Positions 3,209-45,648 of a stretch of 45,932 nucleotides of DNA are shown in pieces. Source of the stretch: Minisyncoccota bacterium (GTDB lineage: Bacteria > Patescibacteriota > Minisyncoccia > Phycocordibacterales > UBA12088). Location: NCBI GenBank assembly GCA_041908795.1, contig JAYRER010000023.1, forward strand, positions 1-45,932. The letters are read 5' to 3'. The translations under genes and the position numbers were made by a program. A model generated the notes under the pieces. It was given only the letters and a program-made list of their open reading frames with translations. It was not told the origin of the DNA and made no database searches. Within the stretch, counting starts at the first letter, position 1; the number at the start of each line of letters is the position of its first letter.

Positions 3209-3724
3209 ATGGACACCTCGCACGAGAAGATAAAAATCGGCTGGTTCGTGTTCTCATGCAGTGAGGACAATACCATTATGTTCACCGAGCTCATGAACGA
3301 CCACTGGCAGGAGTGGAAACAGCTCTTCGACTTTCGCCACGTGAAGGTACTCAAAAAAAACAACATCTACGATGCGTTCGACATTGCGTTTATTGAGGGC
3401 GCCATTGCAAGCCCCGCACATGAGGAGAAGCTCAAAGACATCCGCAGTCGCTCAAAGAAGCTCGTTGCGGTCGGCGCTTGTGCGGTCACAGGCCTGCCCG
3501 CGAGCCAGCGCAACACCTTCACCGATGCGCAAAAAGAGGCGATTCAGTTTCTTGTAGATCGCTTCGGAGCGCTCCCCACCGTGAAGAAGGTGGCTGATGT
3601 AGTCGCTGTGGACGCGTCGGTGCCGGGCTGTCCCATGAACACTGACCTTTTCTTGAAGGCGGTGAACGGGCTGGTGCTAGAGCTAAGACCTCAATTGACA
3701 CAACCGGAGGGAATTGGTTCTTAA
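3209..3724 (+). CDS. [NiFe] hydrogenase small subunit (group 3, HoxY/delta-like, proximal-cluster domain only)
   Basis: ATG at 3209 within ORF 3059-3724. It shows the NADH-ubiquinone 20-kDa/hydrogenase small-subunit pattern FSCSED...VGACAVTG...VPGCP and lies directly upstream of the large subunit. Confidence 0.8.
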   Translation: MDTSHEKIKIGWFVFSCSEDNTIMFTELMNDHWQEWKQLFDFRHVKVLKKNNIYDAFDIAFIEGAIASPAHEEKLKDIRSRSKKLVAVGACAVTGLPASQRNTFTDAQKEAIQFLVDRFGALPTVKKVADVVAVDASVPGCPMNTDLFLKAVNGLVLELRPQLTQPEGIGS

Positions 3725-3726
3725 TG

Positions 3727-3840
3727 CAAAGAGCAAATATCAAAATGCAAATCGACAGTGTAAAAATGAAAAAATTACGACGTGGATATCTTTGCATTTT
3801 GCCTTGTCACTTTGCATTTTGATTTTTAATTATTGAATTC
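3727..3840. repeat. AT-rich palindromic element (AAAATGC-type arms) between the hydrogenase subunit genes
   Basis: ATCAAAATGCAAA (3739-3751) is the exact reverse complement of TTTGCATTTTGAT (3811-3823). A second TTTGCATTTTG lies at 3791-3801. The same motif family occurs in the rRNA insertions. Confidence 0.7.
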
Positions 3841-3845
3841 CTACC

Positions 3846-5141
3846 ATGCACTCATTCGACCTTGATCTCGAGCACATCACCAAGATAGAGGGTGACGCAT
3901 CCATCTTCATCAAGGTGGAAGAGGGGAAAGTGACCGACGTGCGCTTCAAGACCGAAGAGTACAAGCGTTTCTTCACCGAGGCTCTGAAGGGCAAGAGTAT
4001 CATGGCGGTGCCCTCCCACCTCTCACGCATCTGTGGCACCTGTAGTAATGCCCACATCATGGCGGCCATCGAGGCGTGCGAGCATGCGCTCGACATCACC
4101 CCGAGTGCGCAAACCGACATGCTCCGGGCACTCACCATGCACGGGCTCATCATCCGCGACCACGCGCTCCACCTCTACCTTTTTGCGCTCCCCGACATCT
4201 ACGATAAAGACGCGTTCCTCGACTTTGATGAGAACGACCCCCACCAGCACCAGCTCCTCCATGACGGCTTCGACATCAAGCGCGCGGGAAATTTCCTCGC
4301 AACCCTGGTCGCAGGCCGCTCCGTACATGCGATGTACCCTACGATAGGCGGCTTTATAAAGTTTCCCGACGAAGCGGGCATCAAGGAGGCGGTCGAGAAG
4401 CTTAAAGCGGCACGTGAACCCGCGCTCCGCATCGTCGAGGAGTTCCGCAAGGCGCCTTTTCATTTCGACCGCAAGACCAACTTCATGGGGCTGGTGCCCG
4501 ACGGCTCGTTCGGCTACATCAAGGGCAAGATCATGACCAGTAACGGTATTCAGTATGAGGAGGCGGACTACCGCTCGCTCCTCGAGCACGTCGTCCTCCC
4601 CTACTCGCAAGCGTCCGCGTATAAGTCGAGTGGCGAAAGCTACATGGTGGGAGCCCTTGCGCGTGTGAATGTCGCAAAGGACAAGCTCCACCCAAACACC
4701 AAGGCGTCACTTCCCGATGCACTCTCACTCTTCCCCTCGACCGACATCTTCCACAACAACCTTGCACAGGCGATTGAAATAGTGCACTCCATAGATGAGT
4801 CAATCGATCTCCTCGAGCAGAACCGCTTTGCCCCTGAGCCCATCAAAAAGGTCCCCTACCGCGAGGCGGTGGGGGTGGGCGTCGTGGATGCTCCACGCGG
4901 CCTCCTCTACCACAGGGTACACATCAACGACCAAGGCGTGGTGCAAGACGGCGAGGTCATTGTGCCGACCGGCCAAAACCAAATAAATATCGAGGAGGAT
5001 GCGGGCCGCCTCGTACAGGGACTTCTTGACGCGGGCACCACCAACCAGGCGGTTATCACCTTCGAGCTCGAGAAGCTCATTCGCGCGTACGACCCCTGCA
5101 TGAGCTGTGCGGCTCACTTCCTCAAGGTGCACTGGGAGTAG
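3846..5141 (+). CDS. [NiFe] hydrogenase large subunit (group 3-like)
   Basis: 431 aa. The N-terminal RICGTCSNAH and C-terminal DPCMSCAAH Ni-Fe ligand motifs are both present. Confidence 0.95.
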   Translation: MHSFDLDLEHITKIEGDASIFIKVEEGKVTDVRFKTEEYKRFFTEALKGKSIMAVPSHLSRICGTCSNAHIMAAIEACEHALDITPSAQTDMLRALTMHGLIIRDHALHLYLFALPDIYDKDAFLDFDENDPHQHQLLHDGFDIKRAGNFLATLVAGRSVHAMYPTIGGFIKFPDEAGIKEAVEKLKAAREPALRIVEEFRKAPFHFDRKTNFMGLVPDGSFGYIKGKIMTSNGIQYEEADYRSLLEHVVLPYSQASAYKSSGESYMVGALARVNVAKDKLHPNTKASLPDALSLFPSTDIFHNNLAQAIEIVHSIDESIDLLEQNRFAPEPIKKVPYREAVGVGVVDAPRGLLYHRVHINDQGVVQDGEVIVPTGQNQINIEEDAGRLVQGLLDAGTTNQAVITFELEKLIRAYDPCMSCAAHFLKVHWE

Positions 5142-25732: not shown

Positions 25733-26623
25733 CCTGGCCTTGCGGCCATTCGTTCAAAATCCCTCCGGTCTTTCCCGGCGTCAGCACCGATTTAAAGCTC
25801 GTGTGCTTACTTTCTTGTCCTCGTACGAGGGACAAGAATCGACTCACTAAGTGTCGTACTGTCGTACGACACGTTCCAGTTGGAAGTAATCCACGAGCAG
25901 CTTCCGCTACCCGTGCCTTGTTACGACTTACGCCCTGTTACCGAACTTACCGTAGGCCCGAATGAATCGGGACGTCGGGTACTCCCGGCTCCCTTGCGTT
26001 GACGGGCGGTGAGTACAAGACTCGAGAACGTATTCACCGCAGTATAGCTGACCTGCGATTACTAGCGATTCCGACTTCATGTGGGCGAGTTGCAGCCCAC
26101 AATCCGAACTGAGGATACCTTTCTTAGGATTTGCTCAGGGTTACCCCGTCGCTTCCCGTTGTAGTACCCATTGTAGCGCGCGTGCCGCCCAAGGCATCAG
26201 AGGGCAATACGGACCTGGCGTCATCCCCACCTTCCTCCCAAAAAGGGCAGTCTCGCCTGACACTTGTAACAGACGACAGGGGTTGCGTTCGTTGCCCGAC
26301 TTAACGGTACAATTCAAACCACGAACTGACGACGGCCATGCAGCACCTGCCTAGCTGTCCGAAGAGGGCTCACGTTTCTGCGAGCTTTCAGCTAGGTTTC
26401 AAGCCTTGGTGAGGTTCTTCGCTTATCGACGAATTAAGCCGCACGCTCCACCGCTTGTGCGAGTCCCCGTCTATTCCTTTGAGTTTTAAGCTTGCGCTCG
26501 TACTACCCAGGCGCTTCACTTAACGCGTTAGCTTCGCCACGGAGAGGGTCGATACTCCCCATAGCTAGTGAAGATCGTTTAGGGCGTAGACTACCGGGGT
26601 CACGTTGTTACTGCGTACCAACG

Positions 26624-26675
26624 AATTCAAAATGCAAAATGCAAAAGTCAAAATGACAATGCAAAATGCAAAAGC
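26624..26675. repeat. heptad AAAATGC-type A-rich array (single arm) inside the 16S intron
   Basis: aattc-aaaatgc-aaaatgc-aaaagtc-aaaatga-caatgc-aaaatgc-aaaagc. It shares the identical 20-mer GTCAAAATGACAATGCAAAA (26647-26666) with 41036-41055 in the 23S gene. Confidence 0.8.
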
Positions 26676-26747
26676 TTCGTCGCCACACGATGTGAACATT
26701 TCTGCCACATTCTCTATGTCGCCATAGAGGTCGGACTATATCTTCAC

Positions 26748-26778
26748 CCTGCACTTTCTGTTTTTGAGAAAGTGCAGG
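26748..26778. repeat. mini hairpin of the GCACTTTCT family
   Basis: CCTGCACTTTCT-gtttttg-AGAAAGTGCAGG, a perfect 12-bp stem. Confidence 0.85.
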
Positions 26779-27057
26779 AGCTTGGCGTTTAGTCTCTGAG
26801 GGTTCTCCGAACGTAATCGGAGCCTTCCCTGCTGATTGTCTGGTGCCCTGTCATAGACAGAGCGCACTTGTTGGGTTTCCCCTTAAGTACACCAGAGTTT
26901 CCAGCATATAGCCAAGTTGCTTTTGCACATTGCTGTGCAATGAGACACTGTTCGCACTCGTCTCACTCCAACCGGAGTGAGCACTTGCGGTGTCACAAAC
27001 ATGTGCGGGAGGCGATGCGAACTTGAACAAGTTGCGGAGCAAAAACGGAGTGTCTGA

Positions 27058-27090
27058 CCCAGCACTTTCTGTGTTTGAGAAAGTGCTGGG
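27058..27090. repeat. mini hairpin of the GCACTTTCT family
   Basis: CCCAGCACTTTCT-gtgtttg-AGAAAGTGCTGGG, a perfect 13-bp stem. Confidence 0.85.
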
Positions 27091-27388
27091 GAGTTGCCGT
27101 TTTTGCGATACGCAACGAGTATCAAGTTCGTTCGCCGGAGCACGGTTTGTGCAACGCGACGTGCGAACGTTTATCTAATCCCGTTCGCTACCTACGCTTT
27201 CGTGTCTCAGCGTCAGGAACGAGCCAGTGCACTGCCTTCGCCTTTGGTATTCCCCACGATATCAACGGATTTCACCCCTACACCGTGAGTTCTATGCACC
27301 TCTCTCGCCCTCGAGTTCTACCGTTTCCTCCGCAGTTCCGAGGTTGAGCCCCGGGCTTTAACAGAAGACTAATAGAACCGCCTACACA

Positions 27389-27419
<31 letters not shown>

Positions 27420-27731
27420 CGAGGCATCCGTATGACCGCTCCTGCTGGCACGGAATTGGGAGCCTCTTATTCATGAGGTAACGTCAAAATTCCTCCCTCA
27501 TAAAAGCAGTTTACGACCCGAAAGCCTTCATCCTGCACGCGGCGTCGCTCCGTCAGGCTTTCGCCCATTGCGGAATATTCTCGGCTGCAGCCTCCCGTAG
27601 GAGTATGGGCCGTGTCGCAGTCCCATCGGTGGGGGTCAGGCTCTCACCTCCCCTACGCGTCATAGCCTTGGTAGGCCATTACCCTACCAACTAGCTGATA
27701 CGACGCAGGCCGCTCCCGGTCCGCGAAAGCT

Positions 27732-28001
27732 TTACCCGGCACTTTCCAAACTTCGTTGTACGCGCTTTCTCAAATGTCCGAGACCGGCTCCATAGTTCTT
27801 CAGAGCCGCTTCTCGTTCACGAGCATCTTGCTCATTGAGATATGCTTCGTAATAAACTAGATGCCATGGTTTATGTTTAGCTGTAAAGTCACGAGAAGCG
27901 CGCTCTGAATTATGATGTTTCAGCCGCTGTTTCAAGTCACTCGTAAAGCCAGTGTAGAGAAAGCGCGTTGATGCACCTTTCAATACATAGACATAATACA
28001 T
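27732..28001 (-). CDS. small GIY-YIG (URI-domain, COG2827-like) nuclease encoded inside the 16S gene
   Basis: 89 aa (MYYVYVLKG...[17 protein letters not shown]...EREAALK) with GIY, YIG, Arg and Glu motif positions all present. It is on the same strand as the rRNA. The last 4 codons and the stop lie in the 3' arm of the closing stem. Confidence 0.8.
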
Positions 28002-28037
28002 GGCAATATTCTAGCACAAAGACTAGAAAGTGCCGGG
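27735..28037 (-). mobile_element. 303-bp hairpin-bounded insertion in 16S (helix 9 region, ~E. coli 180-195) carrying the GIY-YIG gene
   Basis: Arms CCCGGCACTTTC (27735-27746) and GAAAGTGCCGGG (26-37 of the 28000 block: 28026-28037) are exact reverse complements. No group I core motifs are present. The flanks align to the 16S helix 8-10 region. Confidence 0.75.
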
Positions 28038-28152
28038 ACCATCGGGAATTATCTAACCTTTCGGCTAGTTATGCCCGAGACCGGGGTACGTACCTACGTG
28101 TTACTACCTCGTCTGCCGTGGGTCTAAACCCACTCGACTTGCATGCCTTATC

Positions 28153-28191
<39 letters not shown>

Positions 28192-28412
28192 AAACAATAA
28201 CCGTTACCGAGGTCTTACGACCCTTCCACGGCTGTTTAAGTTGAACTCAAACAATAGTTAAGGAATCATTTTTTGAACTGTGTCGGTAGCCTATTGCTAG
28301 GCGTCCGACACGGACGGAACAAAAGAGAACACAATCTTTTTTGTTCCATGTGTTTGCATGTATGAAGTTGTCAATGACCCATCAAAAACTGCCCCTTCTT
28401 GGCAGTGGAACA

Positions 28413-36505: not shown

Positions 36506-36616
<111 letters not shown>

Positions 36617-37216: not shown

Positions 37217-37977
37217 CGCATATACGTTCCATTGTTTCCAATGGGGCAGACTATATCTTCACCCAACCGTAGCTGGGTGACGGCATGTTATGGGAACCAT
37301 TGCGATATCCCCATCTTCACTTCAACATGTAGTCGAAGTTTCAGTCGTTACGGGGTCAAATCCAAGCTGTTTCAATAGCCCATCTCGCTTTCTTTTTCGA
37401 TGCGCTGAATAATTTTCATTTTGCACCGACAAAGTCAAATCTACAAGTTTGCGTATTTGCATATCCGATAGCAGTGAATATTTGACTGAAGCCAACATAT
37501 CACACGCCTCGATCATGGCAGCTACTTGCTTGTGTTTGAACCGCACATAGGGCGCAACTGTTTTGAGAATGTCACGTACTCTGGCAAAGCCATTGATACG
37601 CAACTCGGACATGCCATCGTTTCGTCTCGACACATATCCAATTCCCAACACCTCACGCATCCAATAGAGCGGTTGCTCATGGCGGGTGTCTTGATAGAGG
37701 CAAATAGTTGCCATAAAACGAAAGCCACGCGATGTGTCACTTCGTTTTTTGATCTGCAGCATTAAGCTGCCATCACCATCAAGAAAACCTGCCAGATATG
37801 CTATGTCACACTTGGATCGACTTCCCACGGTATTATCATATACCTTGTTCTGGTCCTCAAGCAAGTTGATTCGTACAGGACCGTACACAATTCAACTCTT
37901 AGCCCAGAGGGCACACAGACTTCACCGTTATAAGCCGCGTTGTCATCATGGATTACTCCATGAAGTAGCAATTTCTT
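37217..37977 (-). mobile_element. group I intron inside the sarcin-ricin loop of 23S (CCTTAGT^ACGAGAGGACC), carrying a LAGLIDADG gene
   Basis: Removing 37217-37977 restores TCCTTAGTACGAGAGGACCGGG. There is a U at -1 and the intron ends in G. Core motif GGGTGAAGATATAGTCTGCCCC lies near the 3' end. Confidence 0.8.
37322..37888 (-). CDS. LAGLIDADG homing endonuclease, single-motif (I-CreI-like)
   Basis: 188 aa with one LAGFLDGDGS motif. It lies entirely within the intron on the rRNA strand. The true start may be downstream of 37888. Confidence 0.85.
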   Translation of the reverse strand: MYGPVRINLLEDQNKVYDNTVGSRSKCDIAYLAGFLDGDGSLMLQIKKRSDTSRGFRFMATICLYQDTRHEQPLYWMREVLGIGYVSRRNDGMSELRINGFARVRDILKTVAPYVRFKHKQVAAMIEACDMLASVKYSLLSDMQIRKLVDLTLSVQNENYSAHRKRKRDGLLKQLGFDPVTTETSTTC

Positions 37978-38040: not shown

Positions 38041-38439
38041 CATATGTTTCATTCGCACGTGTGCGAACTTCGCTCCCAATTACTTAGGAGTATCGGACTG
38101 TAATTTCTTCTCACTGCACAAGGTGCATTGAGAAGGTCGACGTTCAGTCTCTACGGGCCCCAGCACTTTCTAATAGTTCAAATCATGCGGACAGTACATA
38201 ATCTAAAAATAGATCAGCAAGGTCCATGTGTTTTGCACTTCTAGAAAGTGCTGGGTTCCCTCGGTATTGTCCCTGCGCTCGTTGGTAATTAGTGCATGGA
38301 TTTCACCGATACAAGTCGACGACGCACTTGTATGTCGCCACACAAGGCCGCCGTGTTGTTTCTACTCAATGTCTAAGCAAGGTCTTCCCTTGCCGCCGGG
38401 TTCAAACGGGTTCGGGTCGCAAGTTTTCTTGTAACCCAA
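38041..38439 (-). mobile_element. ORF-less group I-like intron at the L2593 (I-CreI) site of 23S (AACCGT^CGTGAGACAG)
   Basis: Removing 38041-38439 restores GGGTTCAAACCGTCGTGAGACAGG. There is a U at -1 and a terminal G. It has a core-like GAGAAGAAATTACAGTCCGATAC. Confidence 0.7.
38159..38255. repeat. 97-bp hairpin element of the GCACTTTCT family nested in the L2593 intron
   Basis: CCCAGCACTTTCTA (38159-38172) / TAGAAAGTGCTGGG (38242-38255), a perfect 14-bp inverted repeat. Confidence 0.85.
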
Positions 38440-38499: not shown

Positions 38500-39243
38500 C
38501 ATTGTTTGTTAACCTTGTCTTCCGACAAGGATCAGACTATGCCTTCACCGTATTCACACTGTCACCAATGTGAACCTTAGGTGCGAGCCGTATGATAGAA
38601 TTCATTGTGATAATCCTATCTCACGACAGTACCAAACTACTGTCGATCAGTCGTTACAGGAGGTATATTCTTGGATCATGATCACATAGTTCAAACGACG
38701 GTTTTTGGACCGAAGGTTGAACCGAGACAATGCATCCGCCTTGCGAGCTACTCGCACAAGGTCGCCGCGACTCCTCACGGGAGTTGCGAGTATCGCTCGT
38801 GCAAGCACTACTTGCCTACGCTTCACATGTACAAACGGCTCGATGAGTGCAAGGAGCGTATCAACATGCTGTTGATCGCGCACAATCCACTCATGGGTCG
38901 TGCGATTTTTTCGCACATACCCTATACCGTACGTATCTGTGAGCCATGAAACCGGTTTTTTATCACGTTGTGTGATTTTTACAGTTACACGGACACGGAA
39001 GCCGTATTTTTTCTCTTTATGACGTTCAATGGTTGCCATAATGGCACCATCACCATCAATAAATCCGGCAAGATAGGCTCTTTGGGCTTCAGAAAATACC
39101 TTTCCCACGACGTTAGCTGGCATACACGCAGTGTACCTGGGACCTCATTGGTACCCAAGCGTACTATTGTGTATACGTAAGCCTTCGACGTTTTGGACTC
39201 GTATCTTACCCGTACGTTTCCATACGGGAGAGAAGGTAAGTTT
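38500..39243 (-). mobile_element. group I-like intron in 23S domain V (GGGGCTGGAGA^AGGTCCCAAGGG, ~E. coli 2533), carrying a LAGLIDADG gene
   Basis: The flanks align to GGGGCUGAAGUAGGUCCCAAGGG. The core motif GGTGAAGGCATAGTCTGATCC is present and the intron ends in G. The -1 exon base is A, not U, so the boundaries are +/-2 nt. Confidence 0.65.
38647..39123 (-). CDS. LAGLIDADG homing endonuclease, single-motif (I-CreI-like)
   Basis: 158 aa with one [10 protein letters not shown] motif, inside the intron on the rRNA strand. Confidence 0.85.
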
Positions 39244-40274: not shown

Positions 40275-40437
40275 CCCGGCACATCGCACTACGTGCGATG
40301 TGATATCAAAGTTCAAATATCAAAAGGCAAAAGTACGGTGTCGCTGTCGCGACGACTTTTACATTTTGACCTACAATTTTGATTCTTGCATTTTGATTTT
40401 TGACATCGGCTCATCACATGCAATGTGATGTGCCGGG
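40275..40437. repeat. 163-bp composite hairpin insertion (CCCGGCAC-type closing stem, AT-rich heptad arms) in the helix-63-equivalent of 23S
   Basis: CCCGGCACATC (40275-40285) / GATGTGCCGGG (40427-40437). The interior arms are ATATCAAAGTTCAAATATCAAAAGGCAAAAG ... CTTTTACATTTTGACCTACAATTTTGATTCTTGCATTTTGATTTTTGA, around a GTCGC-tgtc-GCGAC tip. Confidence 0.8.
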
Positions 40438-41010
40438 AGGCCTTATCCCTAAGTTACGGCCGCTTTTTTGCCGAGTTCCTTGGGGAGCTATCACTCGTTC
40501 GTCTTGGTCTTCTCGACCTTCCCACCTGTGTCGGTTTGCGGTACGGACTCTCTATAGCTAGAGCTTAGAAGATTTTCTTGGAAGCGCGCTCCTTCAAATT
40601 GTCGTTGGGCGAACCCGCCAACTTTCCGCTCCGCTTGGAATCAGCATTAAAGCAAGGTGCCCGGATTTACCTAAGCACCGTCCTCACGGCACGGACGACA
40701 AGCCAATAAGTCGCTTGAAGTACAGCCCTCCGTCCCTCCATCGCACTATAAAGAGGTGATGGAATATTAACCATCTGTCCATCGCCTCCCCCTTTCGGGA
40801 TCGGCTTAGGCCCGACTAACCCTTGGCTGATCATCATGGCCAAGGAAACCTTGGGATTTCGACGTGCGGGGATTTCACCCGCATTGCGGTTACTCGCTCC
40901 GGCATTCTCACTTCCGTACGCTCCACCATGGGTTTCCCTTTTGGCTTCACAGCAGAACGGAACGCTCTCCTACCACGCCGCTCGCATCTCGCTGCGCTCA
41001 AAGCTTCACG

Positions 41011-41299
41011 TAAATTCAAAACTCAAAATGCAAAGGTCAAAATGACAATGCAAAAAATCAAAGGTCTTTTGCTAATGAACTCTAATGGTCGGCCAAGTCA
41101 CGAGAATTGGCCAAAGTATTGGTGGATCCGACAGGATTGCGTACCTGTGACCTCTTGGATACCATCCAAGCGCTCTAATGAATGCACGTGTGCACCACCC
41201 GCATTCACCTACTGAGCTACGGACCCTTAGAATTCAAGAGCGGGAATTTTAATTTTTTAAGTTGCACTTTTGATTTTTGCGATTTGATTTTTGAATTTG
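41011..41299. other. 289-bp insertion in the 23S helix-45 hairpin (~E. coli 1170), AT-rich arms flanking a tRNA-like core
   Basis: AAATTCAAAA (41012-41021) pairs with TTTTGAATTT (41289-41298). The flanks (TCGTTCGCATCTC / GAGATGCGAGCGG) extend the native hairpin that follows GCTAAGCATGGTACCGAAACTGCGG. Confidence 0.75.
41120..41226 (-). ncRNA. tRNA-like element (degenerate tRNA-Thr GGU-like) embedded in the 23S gene
   Basis: Reverse complement reads GGGTCCG-TA-GCTC-AGTAGGT[30-nt hairpin GAATGC..GCATTC]ATTA-GAGC-G-CTTGG-ATGGTAT-CCAAG-AGGTC-ACAGG-TACGCAAT-CCTGT-CGGATCC-A-CCA. It is a full cloverleaf with a D-loop insertion, an aberrant 8-nt T-loop and an encoded CCA. Confidence 0.6.
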
Positions 41300-41949
41300 T
41301 GTTGCTTCGAATACAATGAGATGCGAACGACATCCGCAGTTTCGGTACCATGCTTAGCCCCGATCATCTTCGGCGCAGAGTCTCTAGATCAGTGAGCTGT
41401 TACGCTTTCTTTGAATGGTGGCTGCTTCTAAGCCAACATCCTGATTGTCACAGAAACTCCACCTCCTTAGTTTGCTACTTAGCATGGATTTAGGGACCTT
41501 AACTGGCGGTCTGGGCTGTTTCCCTTTTGACCAATGGAGCTTAGCCCCCACAGTCTGACTGCCATACTTTTGACCTCTGGTATTCGGAGTTTGATAGGTC
41601 TGACGAGATTGCTCCCTATTCAGACCTTCCAGTGCTCTACCCCCAAAGGGAACATATGACGCTAGCCCTAAAGCTATTTCGGAGAGAACCAGCTATTACG
41701 AGGTTCGATTAGCTTTTCACTCCTTACCACAAGTCATCCGATCGTGTCGCACTGCGAACCGGTTCGGGCCTCCACGGCCTGTTACAGCCGCTTCACCCTG
41801 CTCATGGTAAGCTCACCTCGATTCGGGTCTTACGCGCGCGACTGAATCGCCCTATTCAGACTCGCTTTCGCTGCGGCTCCGGGGGTCGCCCCTTAGCCAT
41901 AGCCACGTGCGTAAACTCGCCGGATCATTCTTCAATAGGCACGCCGTCA

Positions 41950-42044
41950 CCCGTCACTTTCTAAGACTCCAATATTCGCAAACTTTCGAGACATCTCGTG
42001 CACTCAAACATTTGCAATACGTTCGAGTTCTAGAAAGTGACGGG
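41950..42044. repeat. 95-bp hairpin element of the GCACTTTCT family in the 23S helix-25 position (~E. coli 545)
   Basis: CCCGTCACTTTCTA (41950-41963) / TAGAAAGTGACGGG (42031-42044), a perfect 14-bp inverted repeat. The flanks align to CAAGCAGTGGGAGC...TGACTGCGTACC of E. coli. Confidence 0.85.
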
Positions 42045-42380: not shown

Positions 42381-42507
42381 TAAACTCAAAAGTTAAAAGG
42401 GGAAATTCAAAAGTATGGCGTCGCTTTCGCAATCAAAATTATTGCAAATTCCGCAACGCGGAATTTGACCGCACTTTTGCATTTTTATTTTTCACTTTTG
42501 ATATTTG
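42381..42507. repeat. AT-rich heptad-arm hairpin insertion in 23S domain I
   Basis: The left arm (ctcaaaagt, ttcaaaagt, atcaaaatt) opposes the right arm (acttttgca, cacttttgat). It is flanked by the GC-rich stems GCGCTCGCTCGC / GCGAGTGTGCGC. Confidence 0.7.
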
Positions 42508-42686: not shown

Positions 42687-42785
42687 CCCGGCACTTTCTA
42701 AAAATCTGACGTTCCCAGACACACACAAGGCACCACAGCCATCATGTTTTGTCTGCAAAAATACCGATTCTTAGAAAGTGCCGGG
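42687..42785. repeat. 99-bp hairpin element of the GCACTTTCT family near the 23S 5' end
   Basis: CCCGGCACTTTCTAA (42687-42701) / TTAGAAAGTGCCGGG (42771-42785), a perfect 15-bp inverted repeat. Confidence 0.9.
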
Positions 42786-45440: not shown

Positions 45441-45494
45441 GTATAGATCTTGTTAGTAATCGAGCAACGCGAGATTGCGTTACAAGATCATCAT

Positions 45495-45586
45495 CCGGCA
45501 CTTTTCATTACAGAAGCATCTTCAACCCAAAACAGTCCGTGTGTCTCTGCGCTGGTTGAAAACGACATTCTCACAAGAAGTGCCGG
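45495..45586. repeat. 92-bp hairpin element of the GCACTTTCT family in the rplJ leader (outside rRNA)
   Basis: CCGGCACTT (45495-45503) / AAGTGCCGG (45578-45586). It has the same size class as the rRNA copies and begins 55 nt upstream of the rplJ ATG. Confidence 0.7.
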
Positions 45587-45627
45587 GTTGTGAAGAACAT
45601 AGTCGTTGTCGCTCCTTGTTCTTCTAC

Positions 45628-45648
45628 AAAAAATGGCTCGTAAGAGCC
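45628..45648 (-). terminator. weak terminator-like hairpin in the rplJ leader (possible attenuator)
   Basis: On the minus strand, GGCTC-ttac-GAGCC followed by ATTTTTTG. The stem is only 5 bp. Confidence 0.35.

Follow-up and report, generated by a model that had tools for sequence, protein, structure and literature searches.

The window, a stretch of 45,932 nucleotides (nt) from the Minisyncoccota bacterium assembly GCA_041908795.1 (contig JAYRER010000023.1), carries on its minus strand an rRNA operon of the Patescibacteria type with many insertions: the 16S rRNA gene at 25879-28198, the 23S rRNA gene from 42937 down to about 36950, and the 5S rRNA gene at 36508-36613. Within the 16S rRNA gene lies a 303-bp palindromic segment that encodes a small GIY-YIG nuclease, and an earlier note, made from the sequence alone, had pointed to this segment and seven other hairpins as insertions closed by a single stem. 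All eight hairpins are present where the note had placed them and fold as it had described. Their sites were assigned by mapping onto Escherichia coli rRNA (positions prefixed Ec) and onto Rfam models, and the features are as follows.

27735-28037, minus strand: hairpin cassette of 303 bp bearing an open reading frame (ORF), in the 16S V2 hairpin; in the RNA sense, its 5′ arm is CCCGGCACUUUCU (28025-28037) and its 3′ arm GGAAAGUGCCGGG (27735-27747)
27732-28001, minus strand: gene for a minimal GIY-YIG (UPF0213 / Slx1-like) nuclease of 89 amino acids (Pfam PF01541, E 1.4e-14)
26748-26778, minus strand: mini hairpin of 31 nt (12-bp stem, 7-nt loop), within a group I intron of the 16S rRNA gene
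27058-27090, minus strand: mini hairpin of 33 nt (13-bp stem, 7-nt loop), in the 5′ part of the 16S insertion at Ec794
38159-38255, minus strand: ORF-less hairpin of 97 nt, nested in the LAGLIDADG-encoding 23S insertion at Ec~2593
41950-42044, minus strand: ORF-less hairpin of 95 nt, in place of the tip of 23S helix 25 (H25), a classical site of intervening sequences (IVSs)
42687-42785, minus strand: ORF-less hairpin of 99 nt, in the 23S rRNA gene between Ec130 and Ec178 (H9/H10)
45495-45586, minus strand: ORF-less hairpin of 92 nt, with one mismatch in its core, in the rplJ 5′ untranslated region downstream of a weak L10_leader match
45494-45628, minus strand: segment of 135 nt of the rplJ 5′ untranslated region, consisting of a 41-nt 5′ flank (AAGGAGCGACAACGACTATGTTCTTCACAAC) and the preceding hairpin, absent from the closest relative (L103)
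40275-40437, minus strand: hairpin of 163 nt in 23S H63, probably not a family member

Both mini hairpins lie inside one 16S insertion of about 570 nt at Ec794, which contains the group I intron (Rfam match 26712-26969).

Seven of the eight hairpins have in common the closing stem (A)CCNGCACTTTCT(A)/(T)AGAAAGTGCNGG(T), and for these the claim of a single stem stands. It fails for the H63 variant, which was left out of the family as a probable non-member because only CCCGGCAC/GTGCCGGG is shared and because its orthologue in L103 has another stem, CCCGTTCGCATCG. Unrelated stems are also found on other 23S insertions of the window (Ec~275, H45 and Ec1855-1888), and the conserved stem is absent from the window's own tRNA-Leu and tRNA-Ile. 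CACTTTC was counted 22 times, compared with 7.4 +/- 2.6 times in shuffles of the window (none of 100 shuffles reached 22), and 14 of these occurrences are paired arms of the seven stem-sharing hairpins. At the gathering score, Rfam has no family for the hairpins, and by E-value the sole hairpin match is a spurious microRNA. It could be argued that the hairpins are rRNA helices native and specific to the lineage, or palindromes due to chance, and that their shared stem is coincidental, inasmuch as Rfam aligns the stem of the 16S copy onto the native V2 helix (model positions 178-200) and relatives have some hairpin at the same 23S sites; this is scarcely credible in view of the enrichment of CACTTTC, the occurrence of the same stem in introns and non-rRNA contexts, the presence/absence variation and replacement described below, and the existence of at least 95 distinct copies in public data.

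The earlier note's claim that changes in one arm are compensated in the other is borne out: at the variable core position N, 89 of 95 distinct hairpins have a Watson-Crick pair, each of the four pair types being found, and in locus L001 both arms are altered together (CTTCTTA/TAAGAAG) in such a way that pairing is kept while the encoded E becomes R. The stems of the window hairpins are predicted to be uninterrupted for 12-20 bp. All five long window hairpins are more stable when folded in the rRNA sense than in the antisense, as are most of the rRNA-borne copies of other genomes. Among 35 distinct GIY-YIG-bearing cassettes, pairing runs about 10 bp past the 12-bp core, from which it follows that the transcript has a closing duplex of at least 20 bp and constitutes a self-contained hairpin; sub-terminal G·U pairs in the same 35 cassettes number 107 in the sense strand versus 35 in the antisense strand, and therefore the stem forms in RNA.

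Several other candidate roles and occurrences of the stem were rejected. A motif pair at 2578/2683 of the window lies within a coding region and is a chance pair. A possible 23S processing stem was dismissed as GAAAGTGC upstream of the 23S rRNA gene has no partner, and a splicing motif of the bulge-helix-bulge (BHB) type was dismissed as the hairpin stems have no bulges. The sequence AAGTGCGG within the arm resembles the uptake signal sequence of Haemophilus, but the motif has few copies, all of them in inverted pairs that are compensated, and the idea of a DNA uptake sequence was dropped.

The nuclease gene and its relatives

The nuclease gene runs into the stem, as had been claimed: the 3′ arm consists of its last four codons, GAA AGT GCC GGG (encoding ESAG), and the rRNA flank opens with its stop codon TAA. 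In ORF-bearing copies the 3′ arm is GAA AGT GCN GGG, in which N, the free base, is at the wobble position of the alanine codon. The gene takes up 270 of the 303 nt, and no Rfam intron match was obtained over 27735-28037. Only the GIY-YIG domain (residues 1-69 of 89) was found in the protein by Pfam, and neither a known transposase class nor HUH (Y1); the remaining residues are predicted to form one helix, and there is no joined DNA-binding domain. The catalytic residues Y16, G18, R26, H30 and E52 are invariant among 14 diverse homologues. The nearest solved structures by sequence are the UPF0213 proteins 1zg2 and 1ywl (phmmer E 1.7e-4 and 3.6e-4), and the best Foldseek matches to an AlphaFold model of the protein (mean predicted local distance difference test score, pLDDT, 81.5) are 1zg2 and Slx1 of the Slx1-Slx4 branched-DNA nuclease, both with probability 1.00; the template modelling (TM) score with Slx1 is 0.60-0.68, and I-TevI and UvrC are poorer matches. 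By sequence and predicted fold, then, the protein is a stand-alone minimal GIY-YIG domain of the Slx1-like/UPF0213 branch, in keeping with the classification of bacterial Slx1-like proteins as minimal stand-alone domains by Dunin-Horkawicz et al. (PMC1564403).

Public genomes and metagenomes (loci designated L) were scanned with patterns that demanded the exact stem and fixed loop ranges, and all counts are lower bounds. The genome scan for GCACTTTCT-N55-85-AGAAAGTGCNGG yielded at least 52 symmetric hairpins, mostly in metagenome-assembled genomes of many lineages of Patescibacteria, also known as the Candidate Phyla Radiation (CPR); several of the non-CPR matches had a mismatched N pair and no ORF, and were treated as chance. 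In 23S rRNA genes, these copies are located at H9/10, Ec~275, H25, H45 and H63, with copies at H25 and H45 in L011, L057 and L063 mapped on E. coli rRNA. The metagenome scan for the loop class of 255-285 nt yielded at least 44 symmetric hairpins; among the matches listed, 40 of 44 contain a GIY-YIG ORF with 41-80% identity to that of the window, and the closing stem is identical even where the identity of the nuclease drops to 41%. The nuclease gene is always in the sense of the host transcript, and in all 33 long hairpins with recognisable rRNA flanks, among the matches listed, it is in the rRNA sense.

Sites of at least five kinds contain ORF-bearing copies: 16S V2, 23S H25, 23S Ec1432-1600, the rplJ leader (L156) and response-regulator operons (L202 and L130, the gene content of which is not CPR-like). 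The 16S V2 site has the same stem and a GIY-YIG ORF in L001, in L004 and in at least 14 metagenome loci, and homology retrieval identified two pairs of loci (L001/L002 and L004/L005) with the same 16S site and synteny and with the stem either the same or compensated. Full-length copies are about 280-305 bp long and contain one gene, ORF-less short copies are 31-110 nt long, and the inverted repeat is 12-15 bp. The three size classes with shared termini that the earlier note had discerned in the window recur in an unrelated setting on L202, where a single ORF-bearing copy is accompanied by two mini hairpins, of 41 and 43 nt, that are closed by the same stem. The hairpin cassettes thus make up a family, in nuclease-encoding and ORF-less forms, united by a single conserved closing stem.

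The link between the two forms is well supported: the stem is shared between ORF-bearing and ORF-less copies within L004, and ORF-less copies with the conserved stem hold the very sites that are held by ORF-bearing copies in other genomes, such as 23S H25, where relatives have GIY-YIG-bearing cassettes with the same stem as the window's ORF-less copy. As had been claimed for the copies of about 95 bp, the interiors of the window's ORF-less copies share nothing; only some pairs elsewhere, such as L059/L083, are similar, and no trace of GIY-YIG coding sequence was found in ORF-less copies by tblastn. This last result bears on the idea that the stem is kept only as code for the nuclease C-terminus (ESAG plus stop codon) and for pairing with the 5′ arm, unrecognised by anything, with the ORF-less copies being recent remnants of internal deletion. 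Such an origin would suit the wobble position of N in the 3′ arm, a frameshifted GIY-YIG ORF in L148 and the mismatch in the decayed core of the ORF-less rplJ copy, but it is decidedly unlikely, for the stems of ORF-less copies are kept across lineages around unrelated interiors, even in orthologous pairs at 72% overall nucleotide identity, and the co-changed arms of L001 have preserved the pairing and not the residue.

More distant GIY-YIG clades have tight inverted repeats of their own, which always start with CCC and end with GGG, followed by the stop codon, so that, as the earlier note had asked, repeats identical or analogous to those of the window do enclose GIY-YIG homologues in other places. 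Examples are as follows.

L101, 23S H98: CCCAGCACTCAACTGTTCTTA
L102, 16S V3: CCCAGCTCTATTTTTTCTTAT
L098, between two tRNA genes: CCCACGTGGCACGCCA
L227, in the GIY-YIG clade with an SLTG tail: CCCCGTTAGAGAT/ATCTCTAACGGGG

The stem type tracks the nuclease clade and not the host molecule. In the 16S rRNA gene of L001, an insertion (4187-4627) that encodes a 23S rRNA IVS protein (PF05635) lies just upstream of the GIY-YIG cassette and has an unrelated 40-nt inverted repeat. The genes of the SLTG-tailed clade (P0059, L227-L234), which is large, directly follow ORF6N (KilA-N-like) genes and are themselves followed by YhcG/DUF1016 nuclease genes.

Copies outside rRNA genes

Cassettes are located in the apical loops of variable helices of stable RNAs, in RNase P RNA, in tRNA loops, in peripheral loops of introns, and in leaders and spacers of protein-coding genes; hence copies outside rRNA, of which the rplJ leader had been the only example in the window, are intergenic, in RNase P RNA and in tRNA.

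Complete tRNA genes are enclosed by the stem in L008, L048, L062, L068 and L086. In L086 (7222-7320), the cassette interrupts the D loop of a tRNA-Arg(tct) gene and carries a second, canonical tRNA-Arg(tct) gene; L086 is the only one of the five from which in-silico excision of the cassette restores a tRNA recognised by ARAGORN. In L048 (2005-2111; Pro, cgg) and L008 (1638-1737; Trp, cca), the inner tRNA is intact and the outer copy with the same anticodon has decayed. In L012 (5938-6338), a GIY-YIG gene is flanked by a 5′ fragment of tRNA-Trp on one side and by an intact tRNA-Trp gene on the other. These arrangements look like gene disruption with a built-in replacement.

RNase P RNA genes with one to three conserved-stem hairpins were found in L072 (4178-4774), L031 (1636-2066) and L094 (2140-2578). 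Because of the inserted hairpins, they score 56-91 bits, under the Rfam gathering score of 100, and annotation will probably overlook genes of this sort.

Intergenic copies are located in short spacers before the genes for ribosomal proteins S5, S7, S13 and L11, NusA, a NusB-like protein, AtpA and ribonucleotide reductase. The outer flanks of intergenic copies are conserved across lineages (L019, L061, L060, L076, L075, L047, L033, L024, L083, L059 and 45441-45628 of the window): the 5′ flank is (A)AGGGAGCGAAGCGAACACTTAC or AAGGAGCnAAGCGACTATGnTTTTC, the 3′ flank is GTGTAAGAGCTTCTAAGCTCG...CTCGCTAAGAATCTCTAAC leading directly into the ATG of the next gene, and the two pair as an outer stem; L103 has the 3′ flank without a hairpin. 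A mini-ORF of nine codons (MFFTTRHFL*; 45571-45600, minus strand) preceded by a Shine-Dalgarno-like AAGGAG at 45612-45617 extends through the 5′ arm of the hairpin in the rplJ leader, and in L003 the equivalent mini-ORF terminates 18 nt beyond the start codon of the GIY-YIG gene, which suggests that the stem may be opened by translational coupling. Leader-peptide coding was rejected as the cause of stem conservation, for the mini-ORF is present in only one subfamily of leaders (the window, L003, L083 and L059) and would be senseless within rRNA.

Gain, loss and exchange at orthologous sites

The closest relative of the window is L103 (GCA_964383505.1), with 82% identity in a neighbouring 217-residue protein and 72% nucleotide identity over the region. 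This assembly, which also contains L011, is labelled 'uncultured Candidatus Saccharibacteria', a label that may be generic; the next-best homologues of the 217-residue protein are from Kaiserbacteria, Taylorbacteria and Paceibacterota.

Comparison of orthologous sites revealed both presence/absence and exchange of cassettes. L103 lacks exactly the 135 nt of the rplJ leader at 45494-45628 of the window, and the sequences on both sides align almost perfectly. In L003, a GIY-YIG gene is located immediately upstream of rplJ, between CCGGCACTTTCT/AGAAAGTGCCGG, at the position of the window's ORF-less copy, so that the rplJ leader exists in three states: GIY-bearing (L003 and L156), ORF-less (the window) and absent (L103). 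At 23S Ec~275 and H45, where the rRNA flanks are identical, L103 has conserved-stem hairpins of about 95 nt and the window has unrelated insertions of about 240 and about 400 nt; L003 has other hairpins at 23S H9/10 and H25. The stems are thus not fixed native helices. Similar copies also occur at unrelated loci: L059 and L083, from one genome, precede different genes, and their likeness spans the sequence from AAGGAGC to the ATG of the next gene, stopping at the ends of the element.

Proposed mobility, possible RNA processing and likeness to known systems

The 303-bp segment is, with somewhat better than even confidence, a full-length member of a mobile family of palindromic cassettes, comprising ORF-bearing and ORF-less members that are tolerated in the manner of IVSs. 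The cassettes are inferred to be selfish as well as mobile, and from the sequence and modelled fold of the nuclease it may be supposed that this enzyme mobilises the copies. By analogy with classical rRNA IVSs, which offer RNase III a closing duplex of this kind, the insertion would leave the fold of the host RNA undisturbed, and the hairpin would probably be trimmed by RNase III. The Slx1-like nuclease, being of the structure-specific type, would probably cut the hairpin or cruciform, or else the palindromic empty site; the cut would start copying via repair or recombination, and ORF-less copies would be mobilised in trans.

A number of points weigh against this reading. At H9/10 and H25, both the window and L103 have a family hairpin, the stems of which are alike except for compensated N pairs, and the interiors of which are unalignable yet fold equally well. 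Conservation of the stem in place while the interior diverges is indicative of purifying selection as judged from these alignments, and a purely selfish model would need repeated replacement of the cassette. The difference at rplJ might stem from a loss in L103 by deletion instead of an acquisition by the window. As for target-site duplication, no clean case was found: there is none at rRNA sites, and only imperfect direct repeats (ATGnTCTT..AAC) surround the leader copies. The interiors of ORF-less copies are mostly unrelated, unlike those of typical MITEs (miniature transposable elements with inverted repeats). As most copies were found with exact-stem patterns, the apparent invariance of the stem is in part an effect of the search. 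Dunin-Horkawicz et al. (PMC1564403) took bacterial Slx1-like proteins for vertically inherited repair enzymes and not selfish ones. Finally, cutting at the stem by the nuclease and recent movement of any copy are putative.

In-place conservation of the stem would be expected if it were a host signal for RNA recognition or processing, such that a sequence-specific double-strand RNase or RNA-binding protein cuts out or marks the interior, and the nuclease gene merely exploits the signal. Besides the unchanged stems and wholly diverged interiors at orthologous rRNA sites, the sense-strand G·U bias indicative of RNA structure, the enclosure of complete tRNA genes in five loci, the presence of the stem in RNase P RNA and its conservation over many Patescibacteria lineages are all consistent with such a signal. 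However, other insertions of the same rRNAs have unrelated stems (H45, Ec~275 and Ec1855 of the window and the PF05635 IVS of L001), and therefore the host needs no such sequence to tolerate or process insertions; moreover, the window's tRNA-Leu and tRNA-Ile lack the stem, the stem type goes with the GIY-YIG clade, 40 of the 44 long copies among the matches listed contain the ORF, some copies are on contigs with non-CPR-looking gene content (L202 and L130), and the cassette-interrupted tRNAs look dead and replaced rather than spliced. A host signal is accordingly thought rather unlikely, and of the processing signal that the earlier note had offered as an alternative, the formation of the stem in RNA holds good and a general function for the host does not. 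The selfish-cassette and host-signal views can be combined if a stem borne by the element is acted upon by both the nuclease of the element and an RNase of the host.

There is a substantial chance that the family is a new class of mobile element. In a more specific form, which is put forward tentatively and is itself doubtful, the new prokaryotic class would consist of palindromic hairpin cassettes that owe their mobility to a minimal Slx1-like GIY-YIG nuclease recognising the DNA hairpin or cruciform of its own element, or a palindromic empty site; the element would target the apical loops of inverted repeats, and hence the helix tips of structured RNAs, and its cargo might include replacement tRNA genes nested in the tRNA genes that it disrupts.

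Four known kinds of element invite comparison. Classical bacterial rRNA IVSs are found in 23S helices 25 and 45, sometimes with an ORF (PF05635), and are removed by RNase III without ligation. Like them, the cassettes are extended hairpins in place of variable helix tips, including those of H25 and H45, are closed by a long RNA duplex, are distributed sporadically among close relatives, and in some cases have a small ORF in the rRNA sense. Unlike them, the cassettes have one stem of 12-15 bp common to many sites and lineages, encode a nuclease, and are found also in 16S rRNA, RNase P RNA and tRNA genes, introns and mRNA leaders; the PF05635-type IVS in the 16S rRNA gene of L001 has a different stem.

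The second comparison is with MITEs, with repetitive extragenic palindromic (REP) sequences and their associated tyrosine transposases (RAYT), and with the Correia elements of Neisseria, transcripts of which are cut by RNase III. As in these systems, short palindromic copies without an ORF have the same termini as a copy that bears one, and several copies per genome occupy intergenic or leader positions within operons. The RAYT/REP analogy drawn by the earlier note is nevertheless a loose one, because the enzyme is of another class (a GIY-YIG nuclease and not a DDE or HUH transposase), the interiors of short copies are mostly unrelated and there is no clear target duplication; the cassettes also differ from MITEs and REP/RAYT in that they strongly favour loops of structured RNA genes.

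Thirdly, GIY-YIG homing endonucleases (I-TevI and Seg) and the LAGLIDADG genes of CPR introns are comparable, as nuclease genes in the sense orientation and with a patchy distribution in rRNA genes, and the degenerate copies of the cassette fit the idea that cassettes, like homing genes, are gained, decay and are lost in a cycle. The association of cassettes with tRNA genes (L012 and L098) recalls SegB of phage T4. In contrast to homing endonucleases, the cassette nuclease is surrounded by no self-splicing intron (as also reported in PMC11270868); in contrast to I-TevI, it consists of an 89-residue catalytic domain only, flanked by inverted repeats, and it belongs by sequence and fold to the Slx1-like branch and not to the I-TevI/UvrC branch (PMC1564403).

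Finally, archaeal BHB introns resemble the cassettes in that one RNA motif brackets insertions in rRNA and at non-canonical tRNA positions, with or without an endonuclease ORF. The BHB motif has two 3-nt bulges separated by a 4-bp helix, whereas the stem of the cassettes is a perfect duplex without bulges, and the cassette-interrupted tRNAs look inactivated and replaced, not spliced, with no evidence of ligation.

The rRNA genes of CPR bacteria are heavily interrupted, and LAGLIDADG homing accounts for the insertions of the intron type. GIY-YIG ORFs in non-intron insertions of CPR rRNA genes, and short IVS-like non-intron insertions at H25 and H45, have already been reported by Tsurumaki et al. 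(2024; PMC11270868), who left both unexplained, 'outside the context of homing'; the terms 'inverted repeat', 'hairpin' and 'palindrom' do not occur in the main text of that paper. Literature searches by topic and by stem sequence retrieved no description of the common stem, of how ORF-bearing copies are linked with ORF-less ones, of the non-rRNA copies or of the cassette-borne tRNAs, and the family is apparently undescribed. The shared stem unites the GIY-YIG ORFs, many short rRNA insertions, the hairpins in RNase P RNA and tRNA, and the intergenic hairpins. If hairpin cassettes are indeed a class of element, they would account for much of the load of non-intron insertions in CPR rRNA genes. 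With the stem, a very common, uncharacterised protein family (UPF0213, bacterial Slx1-like) also gains a concrete substrate for testing, the study of which might yield either a new mechanism of mobility or a new signal for RNA processing, and as a sequence tag for these insertions the stem could aid the annotation of rRNA and RNase P RNA genes and the design of 16S primers.

Further features of the rRNA insertions of the window are worth recording. Two single-domain LAGLIDADG ORFs are located in 23S insertions, at 37322-37888 (minus strand, Ec~2593) and 38647-39123 (minus strand, Ec~2533), and the RNA around both has only sub-threshold matches to group I introns (E 2.5e-5 to 0.017). The insertion at 23S H45 (40930-41333) contains a tRNA-like sequence (41123-41226, minus strand) that scores 48 bits with the Rfam tRNA model and is not called by ARAGORN; it has the anticodon loop triplet GGU (Thr), a CCA end and a hairpin of about 29 nt inserted in the D loop, and is enclosed by 51-nt inverted repeats built of AAAATGCAAAA-type units. 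Units of (C)AAAATG(C/A)AAA constitute a second dispersed, hairpin-building repeat of the window, found at 3723-3839, 26632-26675, 40356-40403, 41012-41062/41248-41298 and 42475-42505; the sites are the 16S intron region, Ec~275, H45, H63 and one intergenic inverted repeat upstream of the ORF at 3846. Analogous filler repeats are made up of CGCGGAC units in L003 and of AAATGTAAAA units in L038.

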